Shown here piece after piece: positions 22,306-35,867 of a stretch of 64,000 nucleotides of DNA; positions within the stretch are counted from its first letter, which is position 1; each line of letters starts with the position of its first letter. The DNA lies in NCBI GenBank assembly GCA_965541585.1, contig CBEUCH010000009.1, positions 64,001-128,000 of the forward strand, given 5' to 3'. The notes under the pieces are model-generated. The model saw only the letters and a program-made list of their open reading frames with translations, was not told the origin of the DNA and made no database searches. The translations under genes and the position numbers were made by a program. Source of the DNA: an uncultured bacterium. GTDB lineage: Bacteria; Zixibacteria; MSB-5A5; UBA10806.

Positions 22306-24357
22306 ATGAAAAAACATCTTTTATGGATGCTAATCCTTTCGCTGCTCTGTATATGGACAGTTGCCGGGGCAGATACGCCTGGTAACCAGGCGCCTCCTGA
22401 TGAGATCGAGAAGGAAAAACTCTATGAGCAGCAAAAGCTTGCGTTAGAGACAGAACCGGCAGAAGAGGAAGCCAGGCGGGTGGCCGAAAAGATAAGGCTG
22501 ACCGAGGAAATGAATCTGACGCCCGAGCAGGCGGAAGCCCTTAAAGAAAGCCGATTTCTCGAGGCCAATCCCGGCTACAAGGATGAACTCGATGATCCGC
22601 CCACCATTCTGGTTCAGGGGGACGTTTGCTCAGATCCTTTCATAATTCCCGAGAGCTTTCCGTATTCTCATAGCGACAATACCTGTGATTATACCAATCA
22701 GTGCGATATCGCATTCTCGGACAACAGCGATGTCATTTATCAGTTGGATATAACCACTACGATCGACTTAACGGTCTCTTTGTGCGGATCCTCGTATGAT
22801 ACCAAATTAGCCATATATACTCCCACCTGCTGTTCCGGCGATCAGGATTATTGGCAATACAACGATGATTTCTGCAGCCTGCAGTCGGAAATCACCGCTA
22901 CATTTACTCCGGCCACCTACTATATCGTGGTCGACGGGTTCGGTACCAATTGCGGGGCCTACACTCTGAATATTACCGAATACGTGATACCCACCGGCCG
23001 TTGCTGCTATGGCGATCCGTATAATCCGGACTGCGTTGACAACATAATCGAGGCTGACTGCACCACTCAGTATTCTGGAGTATGGACCGAGGGGCTGGAT
23101 TGCGGAACACCATGCCCTGTACCAACCGACTGCAGCAACGCCATCCAGGTTATTCTGCCGCCGCCACCCTTGACCTGGCCTTACGTTGATGCCAATCAAA
23201 CAACGTGTGGCAGAGGCCACAGCTACGATGATGCCACCTGCCTCGAGCCTTACTACGATAATGGTGAGGACATAATCTATGAGATAACGGTCACGGAAGA
23301 AGTAACCGTTGGCATTTATCTTACCTCCAATACGACCTGGACAGGTATGGCAATTGGCACCTCCTGTCCTCCGGGACCCGGCTGTCTGGCCCTGTCAAAG
23401 AGCTCCGGTAGTGATGAAACGATTGAAGGTCTTACACTTGCCACCGGCACATACTACCTCATGATAGATACCTGGTCATCGCCGGACTGTATTGATAACT
23501 ACACTCTAACTATCGATGAATACGTATTACCCACCGGTCGTTGTTGCTATGGCGATCCGTATAATCCGGACTGCGTCGACAACGTAACCGAGGATGATTG
23601 CCTCGCTGGGTATTCCGGAACCTGGACTGAGGGACTGGATTGTGGTACTCCTTGCCCGATTCCGCCGGCCAACGACGATTGCGAGAACGCCGAACTGGTT
23701 GCGGTGCCCTCCTCCACGCAGGGTAATACCGACCTTGCAAATGGAGAGACACTCCCGTTCTGCGGCACCAGCGATGGCGCGCCAGGGGTCTGGTATAGAG
23801 TTATCGGCACCGGAAACACCATGACCGCCACGACATGCAATCCCTATACCGACTTTGATACTAAGCTCAGAGTGTTCTGCCATACTTGCGAAGATCCTTA
23901 CTGCGTTGGCGGTAATGACGATACGTCTGGTGCCCCGCCCGAGTGCGATCTTAACGGTTTGAACCGCAAGTCTACAGTGGTCTGGTGCTCCGAAGTCGGC
24001 ACCGAGTACCTGATTCAGGTTTTTGGATTCTCATCCTATACAGGCAATTTCCAACTGGATGTCTTCGACGATGGAACACCATGCCAGGATCCGCCCTTAT
24101 GTGCTCCCCCGACCGGCGCCTGCTGTGTAGATATGGTCTGCGTTGAGACCAACACCTTTGAGGAATGTTCTGTCCTTGGTGGTTTCTGGTACGAAGGGGA
24201 AGACTGCACAACTTTCGAATGCCCGGAGCCTCCGAACATCCCCACGCTTTCCGAATGGGGTATGATTATCTTTACACTGCTCTTGCTGACAGCCGGCACC
24301 ATCGCTGTCATTCGGAGACGTAATACCGTTTCTGCAAAAGAGGCTGCCCGAAGCTGA
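22306..24357 (+). CDS. Secreted Cys-rich protein with PPC-like domains and IPTL-CTERM sorting signal
   Basis: Signal peptide; three PPC-like domains (YDTKLAIY...TYYIVVDG; TYYLMID; FDTKLRVF...EYLIQV); C-terminal IPTLSEWG, TM helix and RRR. Confidence 0.88.
   Translation: MKKHLLWMLILSLLCIWTVAGADTPGNQAPPDEIEKEKLYEQQKLALETEPAEEEARRVAEKIRLTEEMNLTPEQAEALKESRFLEANPGYKDELDDPPTILVQGDVCSDPFIIPESFPYSHSDNTCDYTNQCDIAFSDNSDVIYQLDITTTIDLTVSLCGSSYDTKLAIYTPTCCSGDQDYWQYNDDFCSLQSEITATFTPATYYIVVDGFGTNCGAYTLNITEYVIPTGRCCYGDPYNPDCVDNIIEADCTTQYSGVWTEGLDCGTPCPVPTDCSNAIQVILPPPPLTWPYVDANQTTCGRGHSYDDATCLEPYYDNGEDIIYEITVTEEVTVGIYLTSNTTWTGMAIGTSCPPGPGCLALSKSSGSDETIEGLTLATGTYYLMIDTWSSPDCIDNYTLTIDEYVLPTGRCCYGDPYNPDCVDNVTEDDCLAGYSGTWTEGLDCGTPCPIPPANDDCENAELVAVPSSTQGNTDLANGETLPFCGTSDGAPGVWYRVIGTGNTMTATTCNPYTDFDTKLRVFCHTCEDPYCVGGNDDTSGAPPECDLNGLNRKSTVVWCSEVGTEYLIQVFGFSSYTGNFQLDVFDDGTPCQDPPLCAPPTGACCVDMVCVETNTFEECSVLGGFWYEGEDCTTFECPEPPNIPTLSEWGMIIFTLLLLTAGTIAVIRRRNTVSAKEAARS
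22978..23657 (+). repeat. Intragenic ~140-bp direct repeat (22978-23117 and 23518-23657) encoding a Cys-rich module
   Basis: EYVxPTGRCCYGDPYNPDCVDN...WTEGLDCGTPCP repeated at a 540-bp offset with high DNA identity. Confidence 0.9.
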
Positions 24358-31926: not shown

Positions 31927-34620
31927 ATGAATCAGAGAGAGTTTGAAGGCAACACCCGTTCATTCGTTCCCATATCCAACGGGACCATAATCTTCCACTA
32001 CAAGGTCATTAAGAAGATCGGCGCCGGTGGCATGGGCGAAGTGTATCTGGCCGAAGACACCAGGCTTGATCGTAAGGTCGCACTCAAATTTTTACCGCTC
32101 CATCTATGTCCGGATGAAGATTACCACATACGATTCAAAAGGGAAGCCCAAGCCGTTGCTAAATTAAATCACCCTAATATAATTACAGTCTATGAGGTTT
32201 CAGAATATCAAGGACGCCCATTCTTCGCGATGGAGTTGGTCGAGGGTCAATCATTACGAGAATTATCCTCAAGTAAAGGATTAAGCTGCGAGAGAATTAT
32301 TGAACTTGCCATTCAGATATGCGATGGTCTAAGCGCCGCTCATGAGAAAGAAATAGTTCATCGAGATATTAAACCGTCCAACATCGTTATCGACGCTTAT
32401 GGCCGTCCTAAAATTCTTGATTTTGGTTTGGCGGCAATTCGGGGCCGTGAACAAATTACCAAGACCGGATCTACTCTGGGTACAATAAGATACATGTCAC
32501 CAGAGCAGGTAGAGGGAAGAAAAGTTGACAGTAGGTCAGACCTGTTTTCACTCGGTACCGTTCTTTATGAAATGATCGCTGGCCGCACCCCATTTGAGCG
32601 CGACAATGAGGCCGCCACCCTAAAGTCCATTGGTCAAGACAATCCTGAGCCGCTGGGAAGGTACAAGTCCGATATACCTGATGAACTTCAACGCACAGTT
32701 TCCAAGTTGCTTGAAAAAGATCCGTCAATGAGATATCAGAGCGCCGCAGGTGTTATTAGTGATTTGAAACCACTTATTGCATCGACCAGGAGCTCCATGA
32801 CTTTACCCTCGACCAAACAGAAGAACAGATGGCCTCTTGCGGTCGGTGGGCTGGTAATTATCGTAGGTTTACTGGTAGCAGGTGTAAAATACTGGCCCGA
32901 CGGTGATACTGGGCATCCCGGTGCGCCAACTCAAGGGCGGATAATGTTGGCAGTACTTCCATTTGAAAACCTGGGAGCGCCGGAGGATGAATACTTCGCC
33001 GATGGAATCACTGATGAAATCACCTCAAGAGTCGCGGTTCTTAATGGTCTCGGCGTAATTGCGAGGACGAGTATCTTGCAATACAAGGGCACAAAAAAGC
33101 GAATTGCGGAAATTGGCTCTGAACTGAATGTTGACTACATTCTTGAGGGGACGATTCGCTGGGACAAGTCGGGCAATATCGACAGAGTCCGTATCACACC
33201 GCAATTGATCCGGGTGTCGGATGAAACGCATCTCTGGGTGGACAATATTCAAAAAGACCTCTCGCAGATTTTTGAAGTGCAAGAAGAAATTGCCACGAGT
33301 ATCGCCGGAGCGCTAAACGTAGCCTTAATAACCGGAGAGCGAGAGACGCTTGTTTATCGACCGACCGAAAACCTCGAAGCCTATGACTATTATCTTAGAG
33401 CGAGAAACTATGGCGACCATGACGATTTTCTCGCGGCGATTGAATTGCTCGATAAGGCCACCGAGCTGGACTCGACTTTTGCATTGGCCTTCGCCTTGAA
33501 ATCTCAATCACATTCAAATTATGCCTTTGGAGAGGAATTGGGCGCTTCAGAGCATTCCGGGCCGGCGCGACTCGCTTATCAAAGGGCTTTTGAAATTCAA
33601 CCTGACTTGGCTGAGGCACATCTGGCCCGCGGGACTTATTTGAATTTAATTGAAAGAGATTACTCGAGCGCTCTCGAAGAATTTGAACTTGCTCAGCAAG
33701 GACAAGTTGACGAAGCGCAGGTTCTAAATGCAATCTCAATAGTCAAGATGCGACAGGGCAAATGGCATGAGGCAATAGCTATCGCCAGGCAGGTCAACAA
33801 GCTTGACCCTCGATCATTTCGGGCTGGGTTAGTGGCGATCCAGGCAAACTTGTTCGTTCATCAGTACGACGAGGCACTGGAAGCCGTTGAGCGAGCAATC
33901 TCTTTAGCTCCTGACGAAGTTGGAATCTATTCCATAAAAGCACAGATTCAGATTAACATGGGAGCGGATGTCGAGCAGATTCAAGAGACCCTTTCCGAAT
34001 GGTCACGCCGTACCACTTTAGAGGGATGGGCATTCGAGTCAGAAGGACCGATGTTTTTCGGACTCTTTCGCTTATGGAATCAGTCGATTGACGTGGATGC
34101 AAAGATCTCTGTTATGAAGTCAAGATTACATGACTATCAGAATCCAGATCAGTATTTCTACACGGGGCTTCTGTATCAACTTAAGGGGGACGAAGTTTCT
34201 TCGTACGTCTATCTGGATTCGGCGTGTATCCTGATCAAAAATCGTGTCGCGAAGGCCCGGGGCGACACTACCGGTCGATTTGAAAATTTCGATCTGGATC
34301 ACAGCATTTATAATTTTCTTGCGCTGGCTTATTCACAGACAAATAGACATAAGCTCGCTATTGATCACGCACAGTTGGCCATGGAAACCATGACTACCGA
34401 TGACTGCCACTGGTGAGGACCTGGTTCGGTCATGGTCATGGCCTATGTTCAGTTGAATGCCGGGAATATTGATGTGGCGCTTGATTATCTGGAAGAGGTC
34501 TTGTCTATTCCGTCTTCCTATTCGACGGCCTGGGTTGAGCTGGACCCTCTATGGGCGCCGGCACGCAATCACGTTCGCTACGAAGAAATAATCTTGAAGT
34601 ACAAGGGTATTTCCTTCTGA
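31927..34620 (+). CDS. Membrane Ser/Thr protein kinase with TolB-N-like and TPR domains; in-frame UGA at 34414-34416 (candidate selenocysteine 830; 897 aa if read through)
   Basis: GAGGMGEV, VALK, HRDIKPSN, DFG, YMSPEQ; TM helix; LAVLPFENL...YFADGITDEI; TPRs. The frame continues after TGA into ...LDPLWAPARNHVRYEEII. The kinase call is firm; the readthrough is inferred. Confidence 0.85.
34417..34452 (+). promoter_or_regulatory. Candidate bacterial SECIS element
   Basis: Hairpin GGUCAU-GGUC-AUGGCC (34428-34443) starting 11 nt after the UGA; loop begins with G; weak lower stem CUGG/UCAG. Confidence 0.55.
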
Positions 34621-34632
34621 AGAGAAAGTTGT

Positions 34633-34688
34633 GATGGGCCCCGCTCGAAAAAACTGATTGTTAAGATAATTACCGATAATTAGGAATT
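34633..34688 (+). repeat. Direct repeat copy 2 (duplicated yjbQ 3' end), att-like
   Basis: GATGGGCCCCGCTCGAAAAAACTGATTGTTAAGATAATTACCGATAATTAGGAATT matches 31605-31660 at 50/56. Confidence 0.92.
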
Positions 34689-34817
34689 GCCCAGCCTGCT
34701 CCGGCGCTCCGGGAAATAGATCCCCTAACTTAAAGCGGACATATTCGCTATTAATAGGAACAATTCGCACTTGAGTTGCAGTTAAGTTAATCAGAATTGA
34801 CAACGGGGAGTGCAACA

Positions 34818-35867
34818 ATGAGAAAGCAGCTTTTGATCCTAAATCTAATCGCCTTGTTTGCAAGCGGTTGTGGCGATGATTCAACCGCGCCGGGGCAGGG
34901 TGTAATTGTAGATGATGAGATTTACTCCGGCGGGGTGCCGCGCGACGGGATACCAGCCTTGAACGATCCGGTATTCATAGAGGCAAATCAGGCCATATAT
35001 TTATCCAGTGCGGATCTTGTCCTGGGCGTAGTCATCGAGGGTGAAGCCAGGGCTTACCCTATCAACATCATGAATTATCATGAGATCGTCAACGATCACT
35101 TTCAGAGTCGCCCGGTCTGTGTCACCTATTGTCCCTTGACCGGTTCAGGGGTGGTATTCGCAAGTGTCCTGGACGGGCGGGAGGTTTCTTATGGAGTCTC
35201 CGGGCTTCTATTCAGGAATAATCTGATCCCATACGACAGAACCTCGTCCAGCCTCTATTCGCAGATGTATGTCAGCGGTATCAGAGGAGACTACCGCGAT
35301 TTCGATTGGCTATTGTATCCCTCTCTGCGATGCACATGGGGATTCTGGAAGAATCATTACCCGGATACGAAGGTAATGTCTCCGAATACCGGCCATTCCC
35401 GGGACTACACCTCGAGTCCTTATGGCAATTATTCTGTGACTTACTCGACACTTTTCCCGGTCAGGTTTCCGGATAGCAGATACCATCCCAAGCATCTGAC
35501 TCTGGGAGTGCAATTCGGTGGTCAGGCCATGGCGTTCCCATCGACCGAGCTTTTCAATGAGAAAGTGGTGAATATCGAACTTGCCGGTATGCCCCTGGTG
35601 ATTGTCTATGACTCCAACGGCCGGTATATGGGCGTTTATTCACGTCTGGTGAGCGGCGACATTCTGAGTTTCTCGTTGATCAGAAACAATAGTTCTAAGA
35701 CGACAATGACCGACGATCAAACTGGCTCTACCTGGTCGGCTACGGGGCTGGCGACTGACGGCTCATTAGCGGGGGAGAAGCTGGAACAACTCCCGTTCTA
35801 TACAGCCTACTGGTTCGCCTGGCACGATTTCTACCCGGAGACCGGGGTTTACACCGCCGAAGAATGA
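34818..35867 (+). CDS. DUF3179 family lipoprotein
   Basis: Lipobox ASGC; SGGVPRDGIPALNDP, ARAYP, HEIVND, VTYCPLTGSG, GVSGLL, YWFAWHDFYPET. Confidence 0.9.
   Translation: MRKQLLILNLIALFASGCGDDSTAPGQGVIVDDEIYSGGVPRDGIPALNDPVFIEANQAIYLSSADLVLGVVIEGEARAYPINIMNYHEIVNDHFQSRPVCVTYCPLTGSGVVFASVLDGREVSYGVSGLLFRNNLIPYDRTSSSLYSQMYVSGIRGDYRDFDWLLYPSLRCTWGFWKNHYPDTKVMSPNTGHSRDYTSSPYGNYSVTYSTLFPVRFPDSRYHPKHLTLGVQFGGQAMAFPSTELFNEKVVNIELAGMPLVIVYDSNGRYMGVYSRLVSGDILSFSLIRNNSSKTTMTDDQTGSTWSATGLATDGSLAGEKLEQLPFYTAYWFAWHDFYPETGVYTAEE

Follow-up and report, generated by a model that had tools for sequence, protein, structure and literature searches.

The TGA codon that lies inside the sensor domain of a membrane receptor kinase gene is, judged from sequence comparisons, almost certainly a conserved selenocysteine (Sec) codon, and it marks a widespread receptor family that is routinely mis-annotated. 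It is highly probable that the gene encodes one 897-residue receptor in which UGA is decoded as Sec by SelA, SelB, SelC and SelD, with a downstream hairpin as the likely SECIS and the Sec-bearing region serving as a portable sensor. Coordinates are positions on the forward strand of the window, i.e., the whole 64,000-nt stretch of DNA that was analyzed; contigs C11, C25 and C28 are from the organism’s own genome.

The ORF at 31927..34416 encodes 829 amino acids and ends with GAC TGC CAC TGG TGA. Past this TGA (34414-34416) the same frame is open for 67 codons (GPGSVMVMAYVQLNAG...LDPLWAPARNHVRYEEIILKYKGISF) up to a second TGA at 34618-34620. An initial annotation, made from the sequence, had read the triplet as an in-frame UGA completing a CxxU motif at codon 830, and the ORF coordinates, the C827-H-W-UGA830 motif and the 67-codon extension all bear this out. 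It had also expected gene callers to split off a 62-aa orphan, which they do: a 62-aa ORF (34432..34620) is in the ORF-finder list, and public collections record the 62-aa product as a protein of its own, so that the public entries consist of a truncated “Ser/Thr kinase/TPR protein” and a separate orphan peptide. The proposed 897-aa architecture of a kinase (Pkinase, residues 25-271), one transmembrane (TM) helix and a TPR region was recovered as well, with the TM helix at 32830-32895 corresponding to a hydrophobic segment at residues 302-323. The features are as follows.

31927..34620, forward strand: putative full selenoprotein receptor kinase gene; by translation, 897 codons including Sec830, then the true stop, TGA 34618-34620
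31999..32739, forward strand: Hanks-type Ser/Thr kinase domain, residues 25-271, predicted cytoplasmic; Pfam PF00069, 179.7 bits (cut-off 31.7)
32830..32895, forward strand: single TM segment WPLAVGGLVIIVGLLVAGVKYW, residues 302-323, as read from the sequence, with basic TKQKNR just before it
32896..33363, forward strand: juxtamembrane region, approximately residues 324-479, predicted extracytoplasmic; includes LAVLPFENLG (341-350) and is conserved across kinase, cyclase and anchor-only forms
33364..34617, forward strand: TPR superhelix sensor domain, approximately residues 480-897, with the TGA inside it; several Pfam TPR families
34405..34422, forward strand: C-H-W-U-G-P motif; Cys827 (34405-34407), His828, Trp829, Sec830 (TGA 34414-34416), Gly831, Pro832
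34417..34617, forward strand: post-UGA tail of 67 codons, comprising the last TPR helices and an end-of-TPR cap (LDPLWAPARNHVRY)
34428..34443, forward strand: candidate SECIS hairpin GGUCAU-GGUC-AUGGCC; stem of 6 bp, loop of 4 nt, 11 nt past the UGA; also encodes V-M-V-M-A

The domain score and the catalytic Lys, HRD, DFG and APE-like motifs (VALK 51-54, HRDIKPSN 145-152, DFG 165-167 and SPE 191-193) identify a Hanks-type Ser/Thr kinase. The receptor is probably oriented N-in/C-out, based on the positive-inside rule and the need of the kinase for the cytoplasm. The juxtamembrane stretch (~324-479) has no Pfam family match; a block reading AVLPF.N...DEYF.DG is visible in the same part of four relatives (L079, L089, L091 and L098). 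An AF2 model of residues 500-897 is entirely helical, with no strands (pLDDT 89.5, pTM 0.89), and Foldseek comparison with the PDB retrieved generic TPR superhelices only (TM ≤0.53). The repeats end in a TPR_END_plus cap (NCBIfam NF047558; residues 844-889; 40.7 bits, cut-off 32), which lies past the TGA. The Sec-bearing TPR module is not confined to kinases. It is fused to a cyclase in L089, L098 and L079 (Guanylate_cyc, 54-59 bits), and L091 is an anchor-only form; occurrence of the module on a kinase, a class III nucleotidyl cyclase or a bare membrane anchor suggests a portable sensor (input) domain. No conserved gene neighborhood was detected, the best candidate cluster being common to three of 25 loci (sensor genes and antisense shadow ORFs excluded), and the neighbors within the window are housekeeping genes (SMC, FtsY, UPF0047, DUF3179 and rib genes).

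The same TGA is present at the aligned codon of 39 verified loci in 32 of the 285 genomes of the class (sets of 22 and of 16 of 17 loci, plus that of G095, which is L081; together 39 of the 40 class rows marked with one TGA). Four further TGA loci were found in three additional genomes (G285, G288 and G289), which are counted as outside the class solely from their absence in the class genome listing. Beyond the TGA the frame stays open for 60-74 codons at 22 of 22 and at 35 of 37 loci. The C, U and P of the motif are invariant, with ≥90% conservation of the H, W and G, across 22 sequences that are mostly just 28-33% identical; the same pattern recurs in 37 named loci and 16 further loci. Among 185,579 species genomes the TGA motif pattern has 37 exact matches, compared with ~0.02 expected by our own estimate. 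The matches come from named MAGs that independent projects assembled, and 15 agree letter for letter over the 72-nt core with loci of the class set. In the phylogenetic tree a single branch (SH-aLRT 99) separates 22 Sec proteins from 18 non-Sec proteins, and terminal branches reach ~1.2 changes per site. At codon 830 of homologues the initial annotation had anticipated either a conserved TGA or an alternation of TGA and Cys; the former was found (39 class loci and four others) and the latter was not, every motif-bearing member having TGA.

Viewed in isolation, a lone TGA within a long ORF looks like a nonsense mutation, a pseudogene or an assembly error in this one genome, and two relatives have indeed decayed (L084 is frameshifted, while the tail of L082, which is L125, is cut by a TAG after 35 codons). 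We give this explanation practically no weight, as it is refuted by the presence of the same TGA across the class and in the 37 MAG matches, by sequencing data and by selection on the tail. Confirmation of the TGA in sequencing data, as had been suggested, came from metagenome contigs of relatives (4 runs, 3 studies), which are unchanged at 34414-34416; this check covers the relatives’ contigs, as none of the 7 runs listed (shares ≤0.07 each) contains the organism’s own stretch as such. Downstream of the TGA, dN/dS is 0.10-0.31 in nine of nine pairs, in line with the predicted purifying selection.

The short stretch between the TGA and the first downstream ATG is particularly informative. The third base of the Pro832 codon is T, G, C or A, yet Pro is retained in 44 of 44 sequences, and 43 of the 44 keep the frame from the TGA to that ATG, the exception being the decayed L084. 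Retention of Gly831 and Pro832 as amino acids while the third base of the Pro codon varies indicates that the codons between the TGA and the ATG are translated. This bears on the possibility that the TGA is a genuine stop in a split gene, with the kinase ending at residue 829 and the tail made from one of the conserved ATGs of VMVMA by translational coupling, or with selenium-limited termination itself being the signal. In-frame ATGs 15 and 21 nt past the TGA in nearly all members, together with the 62-aa product predicted by gene callers, would suit such an arrangement. We nevertheless regard it as very unlikely, since the two conserved residues lie upstream of the first ATG, the frame from TGA to ATG is kept in all but the one decayed copy, and a separate tail without a signal peptide would remain in the cytoplasm, apart from the exported TPR domain that it completes in the AF2 model.

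Machinery for Sec insertion is encoded in the organism’s genome, where selC (tRNA-Sec), selD, selA and selB cluster at 66.8-77.0 kb of contig C11, all above curated cut-offs (tRNA-Sec, 75.6 bits; selD, 349 bits); selD itself contains an in-frame TGA. The initial annotation had asked whether these four genes occur, and all were found. It had listed as evidence against Sec a lack of this machinery, a TGA private to the assembly and a decayed tail, and on each count the opposite was observed: the machinery is present, the TGA is shared and the tail is under purifying selection. The genome also has a Trx/Prx-like gene with W-U-P-V-C, and Sec is thus in use in a known family in this organism. Genome-wide reassignment of TGA was considered and rejected; of the 1036 open frames that reach 400 codons or more, TGA closes 356 (34%), and it is the kinase gene’s own terminator. 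Within the class, 264 of 285 genomes have a selA match; with the gene nearly universal, a comparison of where the TGA form and the Sec machinery occur is uninformative. Two genomes (G117 and G118, 86% and 78% complete) have the TGA form but no selA match.

The candidate SECIS lies immediately downstream, its loop 17 nt past the UGA. Across 44 distinct sequences 99.2% of cells in the hairpin are paired, and the closing pair is GC in 39, AU in three, UA in one and GU in one, with L127 and L128 adding U-A plus C-G. None of 500 shuffles reached the observed covariation score, a statistic that overstates support, since variation is limited to two stem pairs in related sequences. Almost no stem position varies, and the stem doubles as the coding sequence for VMVMA. 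Constraint also extends to synonymous sites: GTC is used for 21 of 21 and for 19 of 20 hairpin Val codons, compared with 28% elsewhere in these genes. The bSECIS model, as quoted in PMC13188914, specifies a 3-9 nt apical loop, a 4-16 bp upper stem, 16-37 nt between UGA and loop, G in the first two loop positions and a minimum free energy ≤-7.5 kcal/mol. Loop, stem and spacing of the hairpin all fall within these ranges. Its energetics are modest. Folded by itself, the hairpin has a median energy of -5.2 kcal/mol (-7.9 to -2.1). Of the 44 sequences, 42 reach ≤-7.5 kcal/mol over the 48 nt past the UGA, although just 10 have this very hairpin in the unconstrained MFE structure. An Rfam scan of 34350-34560 with E-values up to 10 gave three chance-level matches and no SECIS family.

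Other folds and comparators were considered. RNAalifold, applied to the 72-nt alignment, proposed pairing of the Cys, His and UGA codons with the VMVMA codons; this fold was rejected as less supported because no compensatory changes back it, and because the variants A24 and A37, for which the 6-bp hairpin compensates, disrupt its pairing. As SECIS comparators from the same genome, formate dehydrogenase was set aside (the TIGR01591 matches have no in-frame stop), as was the hairpin of the Trx/Prx-like selenoprotein, which differs in sequence. The genome’s selD also shows GGUC at a hairpin apex.

Almost all selenoproteins have Cys homologues (PMC12013277), and the lack of one here is atypical. 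The Cys pattern CHWCGPxxVM has no match in the 185,579 species genomes, compared with the 37 for the TGA pattern. In a search of 1.84 billion proteins, 129 rows among the best 150 of 8,604 matches (E ≤1e-30) span the site, and none has Cys at either column; 16 of these best 150 end directly after C-x-W. Cys homologues aligned with Sec, which are usual for selenoproteins and not obligatory, were thus absent from the pattern matches and from the spanning rows among the best 150. What is found instead are non-selenium paralogues, two of them in the organism’s own genome (C28:18782-20428 and C25:26555-28204), which are like the receptor in architecture and length, are 27-39% identical to it and share its C-terminal DP.W.P.R.HPR(F/Y) cap and TPR_END_plus end. 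They have no TGA and carry P-[VI]-S-K-D-A-x-x-G-P at the motif site. Among the rows from the best 150 of 8,604 matches, 123 of 129 have D or E at the Cys827 column, and the Sec column is variable. The paralogues sit across the 99%-supported branch from the Sec proteins.

These comparisons also inform a further alternative, in which a near-cognate or suppressor tRNA inserts Trp, Cys, Arg or Gly at the UGA, helped by downstream structure, so that full-length protein is made without selenium. Read-through would accommodate the clear signs that the tail is translated, a hairpin of modest stability that is not the sole MFE structure, and the lack of any Cys homologue among the sequences searched to mark the site as a redox position. 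Under read-through, however, a sense codon should have become fixed somewhere in so deep a clade, and none of the 129 spanning rows among the best 150 of 8,604 matches has CHW followed by a sense codon at the Sec column. The site moreover lies within C-x-x-U, the hairpin geometry and GG loop fit the SelB-type SECIS model (PMC13188914), and selA is nearly universal in the class. We therefore consider Sec-independent read-through unlikely, and favor Sec.

Decoded as Sec, 31927-34620 would yield a single membrane receptor whose Hanks-type kinase is cytoplasmic and whose TPR sensor, beyond one TM helix, is extracytoplasmic. The organism’s own SelA, SelB, SelC and SelD would read the TGA at 34414-34416, and the hairpin with the GGUC loop (34428-34443) would most likely direct them to it as a bacterial SECIS. 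Sec830 and Cys827 would be paired in the invariant C-H-W-U-G-P loop, predicted to cap the N-terminus of a TPR helix and to stand where the non-selenium paralogues have their conserved S-K-D-A-x-x-G-P loop, and the state of the pair would control cytoplasmic output. We see a roughly even chance that the Cys-Sec pair exerts such control either as a selenenylsulfide redox switch or as a soft-ligand (metal/chalcogen) site. A broader proposal, which we offer tentatively and place slightly short of probable, is that these proteins form the first selenoprotein receptor class, an obligately selenium-dependent extracytoplasmic module with a Cys827-Sec830 plus His/Trp switch and kinase, cyclase or anchor outputs, distributed over Zixibacteria and neighboring FCB-group lineages. 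In a bolder variant, the ratio of truncated to complete receptor may itself report selenium supply, full-length synthesis needing selenium.

Known bacterial selenoproteins are overwhelmingly oxidoreductases. If our reading is true, selenium biology would extend from catalysis to environmental sensing, with Sec placed in the ligand- or redox-sensing domain of signaling proteins (kinase, cyclase and anchored sensor) that are widespread in an uncultured, selenium-rich lineage. The family would be a concrete case in which sulfur apparently cannot replace selenium. It would also expose a systematic annotation error, the division of such genes into two public entries. Selenoprotein finders that depend on Cys/Sec pairs would miss these receptors by design.

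The receptor family has no entry in the selenoproteome surveys and reviews compared, and its likeness to known systems is partial. The apical loop of fdhF reads GGUC, with 11-nt spacing. Like selenoproteins of the E. coli fdhF type, which use SelB and a SECIS within the ORF, the receptor has a conserved UGA, selABCD and database entries truncated at the UGA, and, as in the bSECIS model, a downstream in-ORF hairpin whose small apical loop, 17 nt past the UGA, opens with G-G. It differs from them in being a signaling protein with Sec in a TPR sensor instead of an oxidoreductase active site, in having no Cys homologue found, and in its short (6 bp), weak stem.

Selenoprotein O (SelO) is an AMPylating pseudokinase with Sec at its C-terminus. 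Thioredoxin-fold CxxU/UxxC selenoproteins (SelW/Rdx-like, AhpD-like, Trx-like and Prx-like; PMC2398784, Table 2) likewise have Cys and Sec two residues apart, and in the receptor, as in these proteins, Sec stands at a helix N-terminus, a position that would favor a selenolate and a reversible selenenylsulfide. The receptor falls outside this group, since its model is an all-alpha TPR superhelix with Foldseek matches to TPR only; the intervening residues are His-Trp, and the motif is predicted to be extracytoplasmic and tied to a kinase or cyclase. With SelO, the known selenoprotein whose fold is kinase-like (PMC3281104), the receptor shares a kinase-fold domain and Sec in one polypeptide. Assignment to SelO was rejected, as the 22 Pfam matches include Pkinase and PK_Tyr_Ser-Thr and no SelO family. 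In contrast to SelO, the receptor has a canonical Hanks-type Pkinase, and its Sec would lie ~560 residues away, across the membrane in the sensor domain.

Translation of the window bore out the positions that the initial annotation had assigned to the gene (31927..34620, plus strand), its in-frame TGA, the neighboring cysteine and the transmembrane segment. The codons across the site read ...GAC TGC CAC TGG TGA GGA CCT..., with the TGA at 34414-34416, and the same frame continues for 67 further open codons until it is ended by a second TGA at 34618-34620. This first TGA is very probably a real, conserved selenocysteine (Sec) codon, and the TPR module in which it lies represents a new sensor-domain family that is Sec-only, with a function that is plausible but unproven. 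As had been predicted, an ORF finder splits the gene into a shortened kinase of 829 aa (31927..34416) and a 62-aa ORF (34432..34620); the 62-aa product is a separate protein entry in public collections, where truncated relatives have also been entered. The receptor has the proposed kinase, single membrane segment and TPR region:

Residues 25-271: Pkinase domain (179.7 bits) with VALK, HRD, DFG and SPE motifs
Residues 302-323: single hydrophobic segment with basic residues ahead of it
Juxtamembrane region: conserved, without a family match
After the juxtamembrane region: TPR superhelix

Residues 500-897 were modelled with AlphaFold2 from a 22-sequence alignment (pLDDT 89.5, pTM 0.89); the model places C-H-W-U (model residues 328-331) in a loop that joins helices 309-322 and 332-345, and Sec caps the second of these helices at its N-terminus. 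Downstream, the kinase gene adjoins a gene for a DUF3179 protein (34797-35867, 300 bits) and then riboflavin genes (ribD, ribE and ribBA); the kinase-DUF3179 pairing is not kept at other loci of the family. Elsewhere in the window, the C-terminus of a 683-aa ORF (22306-24354) is an IPTL-CTERM sorting motif (23.6 bits vs. a cut-off of 20.8).

The source genome (G000) is able to decode Sec, with selA, selB, selC and selD all present on contig C11; its relevant features are:

C11: tRNA-Sec, 75.6 bits (gathering score 47)
C11: selA, 459.9 bits
C11: selB, 341.6 bits
C11:72826 (locus L001): selD, 349 bits, itself interrupted by an in-frame TGA (...AACAG-U-ASKLS...)
C16, ~77400-78300, minus strand: Trx/Prx-like selenoprotein, classic W-U-P-V-C motif in a 728-aa open frame

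SelD is a selenoprotein itself, and GGUC lies at a hairpin apex 32 nt after its UGA. The C-terminal part of the Trx/Prx-like protein presumably resembles a secretion-sorting tail. TGA is otherwise an ordinary stop in this genome, ending 356 of the 1036 open frames that have 400 codons or more, as well as the kinase gene itself. Within the class (285 genomes), selA was found in 264 genomes, and in 193 of the 198 of high quality; the selA match of one genome (G164:C64:9741-11075) holds one in-frame TGA.

The initial annotation had named a conserved TGA or TGA/Cys alternation at codon 830 as supporting evidence; the conserved TGA was recovered at 39 loci in 32 genomes of the class, and the searches described below found no Cys form. 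When 41 related genomes were searched in six frames, the two top-scoring foreign matches each had one TGA, at the exactly aligned codon in C-H-W-TGA-G-P. The search of the class gave matches at E ≤1e-25 in 110 of 285 genomes (150 rows listed and 22 further ones). Among the 150 matches listed, 40 were flagged as having one TGA, the position of which was examined in every case; it is at the motif in 39 (22 loci, 16 of another 17, and one in G095 at the same place as L081), and the remaining row, L129, is of the non-Sec type with its TGA away from the motif. The DNA pattern C-[HFLY]-W-TGA-[GS]-P-x-x-V-M-[VG]-M, searched in 185,579 species, each represented by a single genome, matches at 37 places, all of which belong to this gene family. 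Most of these records are labelled Zixibacteria/Zixiibacteriota, the others Ignavibacteria/Ignavibacteriales, Calditrichaeota, Neomarinimicrobiota, FCB group or uncultured bacterium. The labels Ignavibacteriales and Calditrichaeota are no evidence of a wider range, because two records so labelled coincide with places in class genomes G095 and G162; G285 and G288 (labelled Neomarinimicrobiota) and G289 (“uncultured bacterium”) are absent from the class listing. For fifteen of the 37 places, the 72-nt core matches a locus already in the class set exactly. The TGA is also present in sequencing data from relatives of the source organism: 34404-34454 is covered by contigs from 4 metagenome runs of 3 studies, none of which lists a change at 34414-34416, and one contig of 396 nt spans 34296-34688 without indels.

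Past the TGA the frame stays open for 63-74 codons in 22/22 class loci and for 60-74 codons in 35 of 37 named loci. One exception, L084 (CAVOPW010000004.1), is a decayed copy that has lost 1 nt immediately past the hairpin described below; the other, L082 (the same as L125; G036:C41:7454-8884), is the first of two tandem copies, and a TAG ends its tail after 35 codons. The tail is under purifying selection, which had been proposed as a check, with dN/dS of 0.10-0.31 in all nine close pairs; values for the 200 codons ahead of the TGA are 0.13-0.56 in eight pairs, one pair being saturated. Residues 844-889 match the curated NCBIfam domain TPR_END_plus (40.7 bits vs. a cut-off of 32). The Gly and Pro that separate the TGA from the first ATG after it are conserved while the third base of the Pro codon varies, which argues against a separately initiated tail.

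A candidate SECIS hairpin, GGUCAU-GGUC-AUGGCC, is found at 34428-34443, 11 nt after the UGA. The bacterial SECIS model given in PMC13188914 calls for 3-9 nt in the loop and 4-16 bp in the stem, a loop that opens with two Gs, a UGA-to-loop distance of 16-37 nt (stated also in PMC10778597) and MFE ≤ -7.5 kcal/mol. The hairpin lies within this geometry (loop 4 nt, stem 6 bp, GG loop start, spacing 17 nt). In 44 distinct sequences, two of them decayed copies, 99.2% of stem cells pair and the covariation score was reached by none of 500 shuffles, statistics that are generous because the sequences share ancestry and the stem also encodes V-M-V-M-A. The closing pair, both positions of which are third-codon positions, is GC in 39 sequences, AU in 3, UA in 1 and GU in 1, and the third pair is UG in 41, UA in 2 and CG in 1; L127 and L128 have a further variant, U-A plus C-G. 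Synonymous sites at the hairpin are constrained: the stem valines are GTC in 21/21 and 19/20 Val codons vs. 28% of the 1048 other Val codons of these genes, and Gly831 is GGA in 19/21 Gly codons vs. 24% elsewhere. The GGUC of the loop recurs at the apex of the selD hairpin of this genome. Taken by itself, the kinase hairpin is weak (median -5.2 kcal/mol). In 42 of 44 sequences the 48-nt stretch that follows the UGA reaches ≤ -7.5 kcal/mol, but only 10 of the 44 have the exact hairpin in their free MFE structure; RNAalifold favored a different fold, and Rfam has no match for the hairpin region.

The back-translated motif CHWCGPxxVM, with C for U, had no matches in the collection that gave 37 for the TGA pattern. 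A profile of 22 tails gave 8,604 matches at E ≤1e-30 among 1.84 billion representative proteins. In the best 150 of these 8,604, 16 proteins stop directly after C-[HYQ]-W and another four rows are either gapped or matched by chance; the 129 rows (125 proteins) that cover the site have no Cys at either the Sec or the Cys827 column (the latter holds D 96, E 27, N 4, G 1, Y 1), so that within these best 150 neither the motif Cys nor the TGA occurs without the other. Non-Sec paralogues differ in having another conserved loop, P-[VI]-S-K-D-A-x-x-G-P. Three non-Sec members hold one in-frame TAG within the match (G244:C58, L057; G237:C1, L061; G107:C1:1689623-1690732); L057 and L061 have GAC (Asp) at the Sec-aligned codon, so their TAG sits elsewhere.

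A quick maximum-likelihood tree was built from the C-terminal 540 residues of the 40 loci for which 500 residues or more could be used; in it, a single branch (SH-aLRT 99) parts 22 TGA-bearing from 18 TGA-free proteins; terminal branches reach ~1.2 changes per site. The closest relatives of the window gene (70% and 60% identity) come from other taxonomic families, f17 and f9. Neither of the two genomes from the same genus gave a TGA-type match: G001 (89% complete) had no match and G002 only a non-Sec paralogue. This patchy distribution suggests lateral transfer or loss. The family also expands by tandem duplication: contigs C26 and C27 of G140 hold four TGA-type copies (L050, L113, L114, L116), two of them <3 kb apart on C27, with a non-Sec paralogue nearby.

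The module is joined to more than one output. In L089, L098 and L079 the membrane-anchored TPR-CHWU module stands behind a class III nucleotidyl cyclase domain (PF00211, 54-59 bits vs. a cut-off of 21.9), and in L091 behind membrane segments only; kinase and anchor-only N-termini both occur among the shortened database proteins. A single input module joined to several outputs is a hallmark of sensor domains; of the indirect evidence that the module senses something, this arrangement is the strongest. The conserved, recoded UGA, with its decoding machinery and RNA element, places a Cys-x-x-Sec pair in the sensor domain, which would be extracytoplasmic. The pair could alternate between selenolate/thiol and selenenylsulfide, or bind a soft ligand jointly with His828, and its state may alter TPR packing and hence cytoplasmic output. 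We consider such redox or soft-ligand control of the output about evenly balanced between true and false.

No kinase, TPR or cyclase selenoprotein appears in the portions covered of PMC2398784, including its Table 2 (51 families), or by term search in the main text of PMC13188914, PMC13326102 and PMC12013277 or in PMC9312934 and bioRxiv 10.1101/2022.07.06.499078. The terms kinase, TPR and tetratricopeptide have 0 occurrences in ~4.0 million characters, perhaps not the whole, of the BSepDB supplement of PMC13326102 (111 families), and full-text searches of the open literature returned no such selenoprotein. A putative histidine-kinase selenoprotein in Deltaproteobacteria is mentioned in PMC8318568; histidine kinases are a different kinase family from the Ser/Thr receptor kinase encoded in the window.
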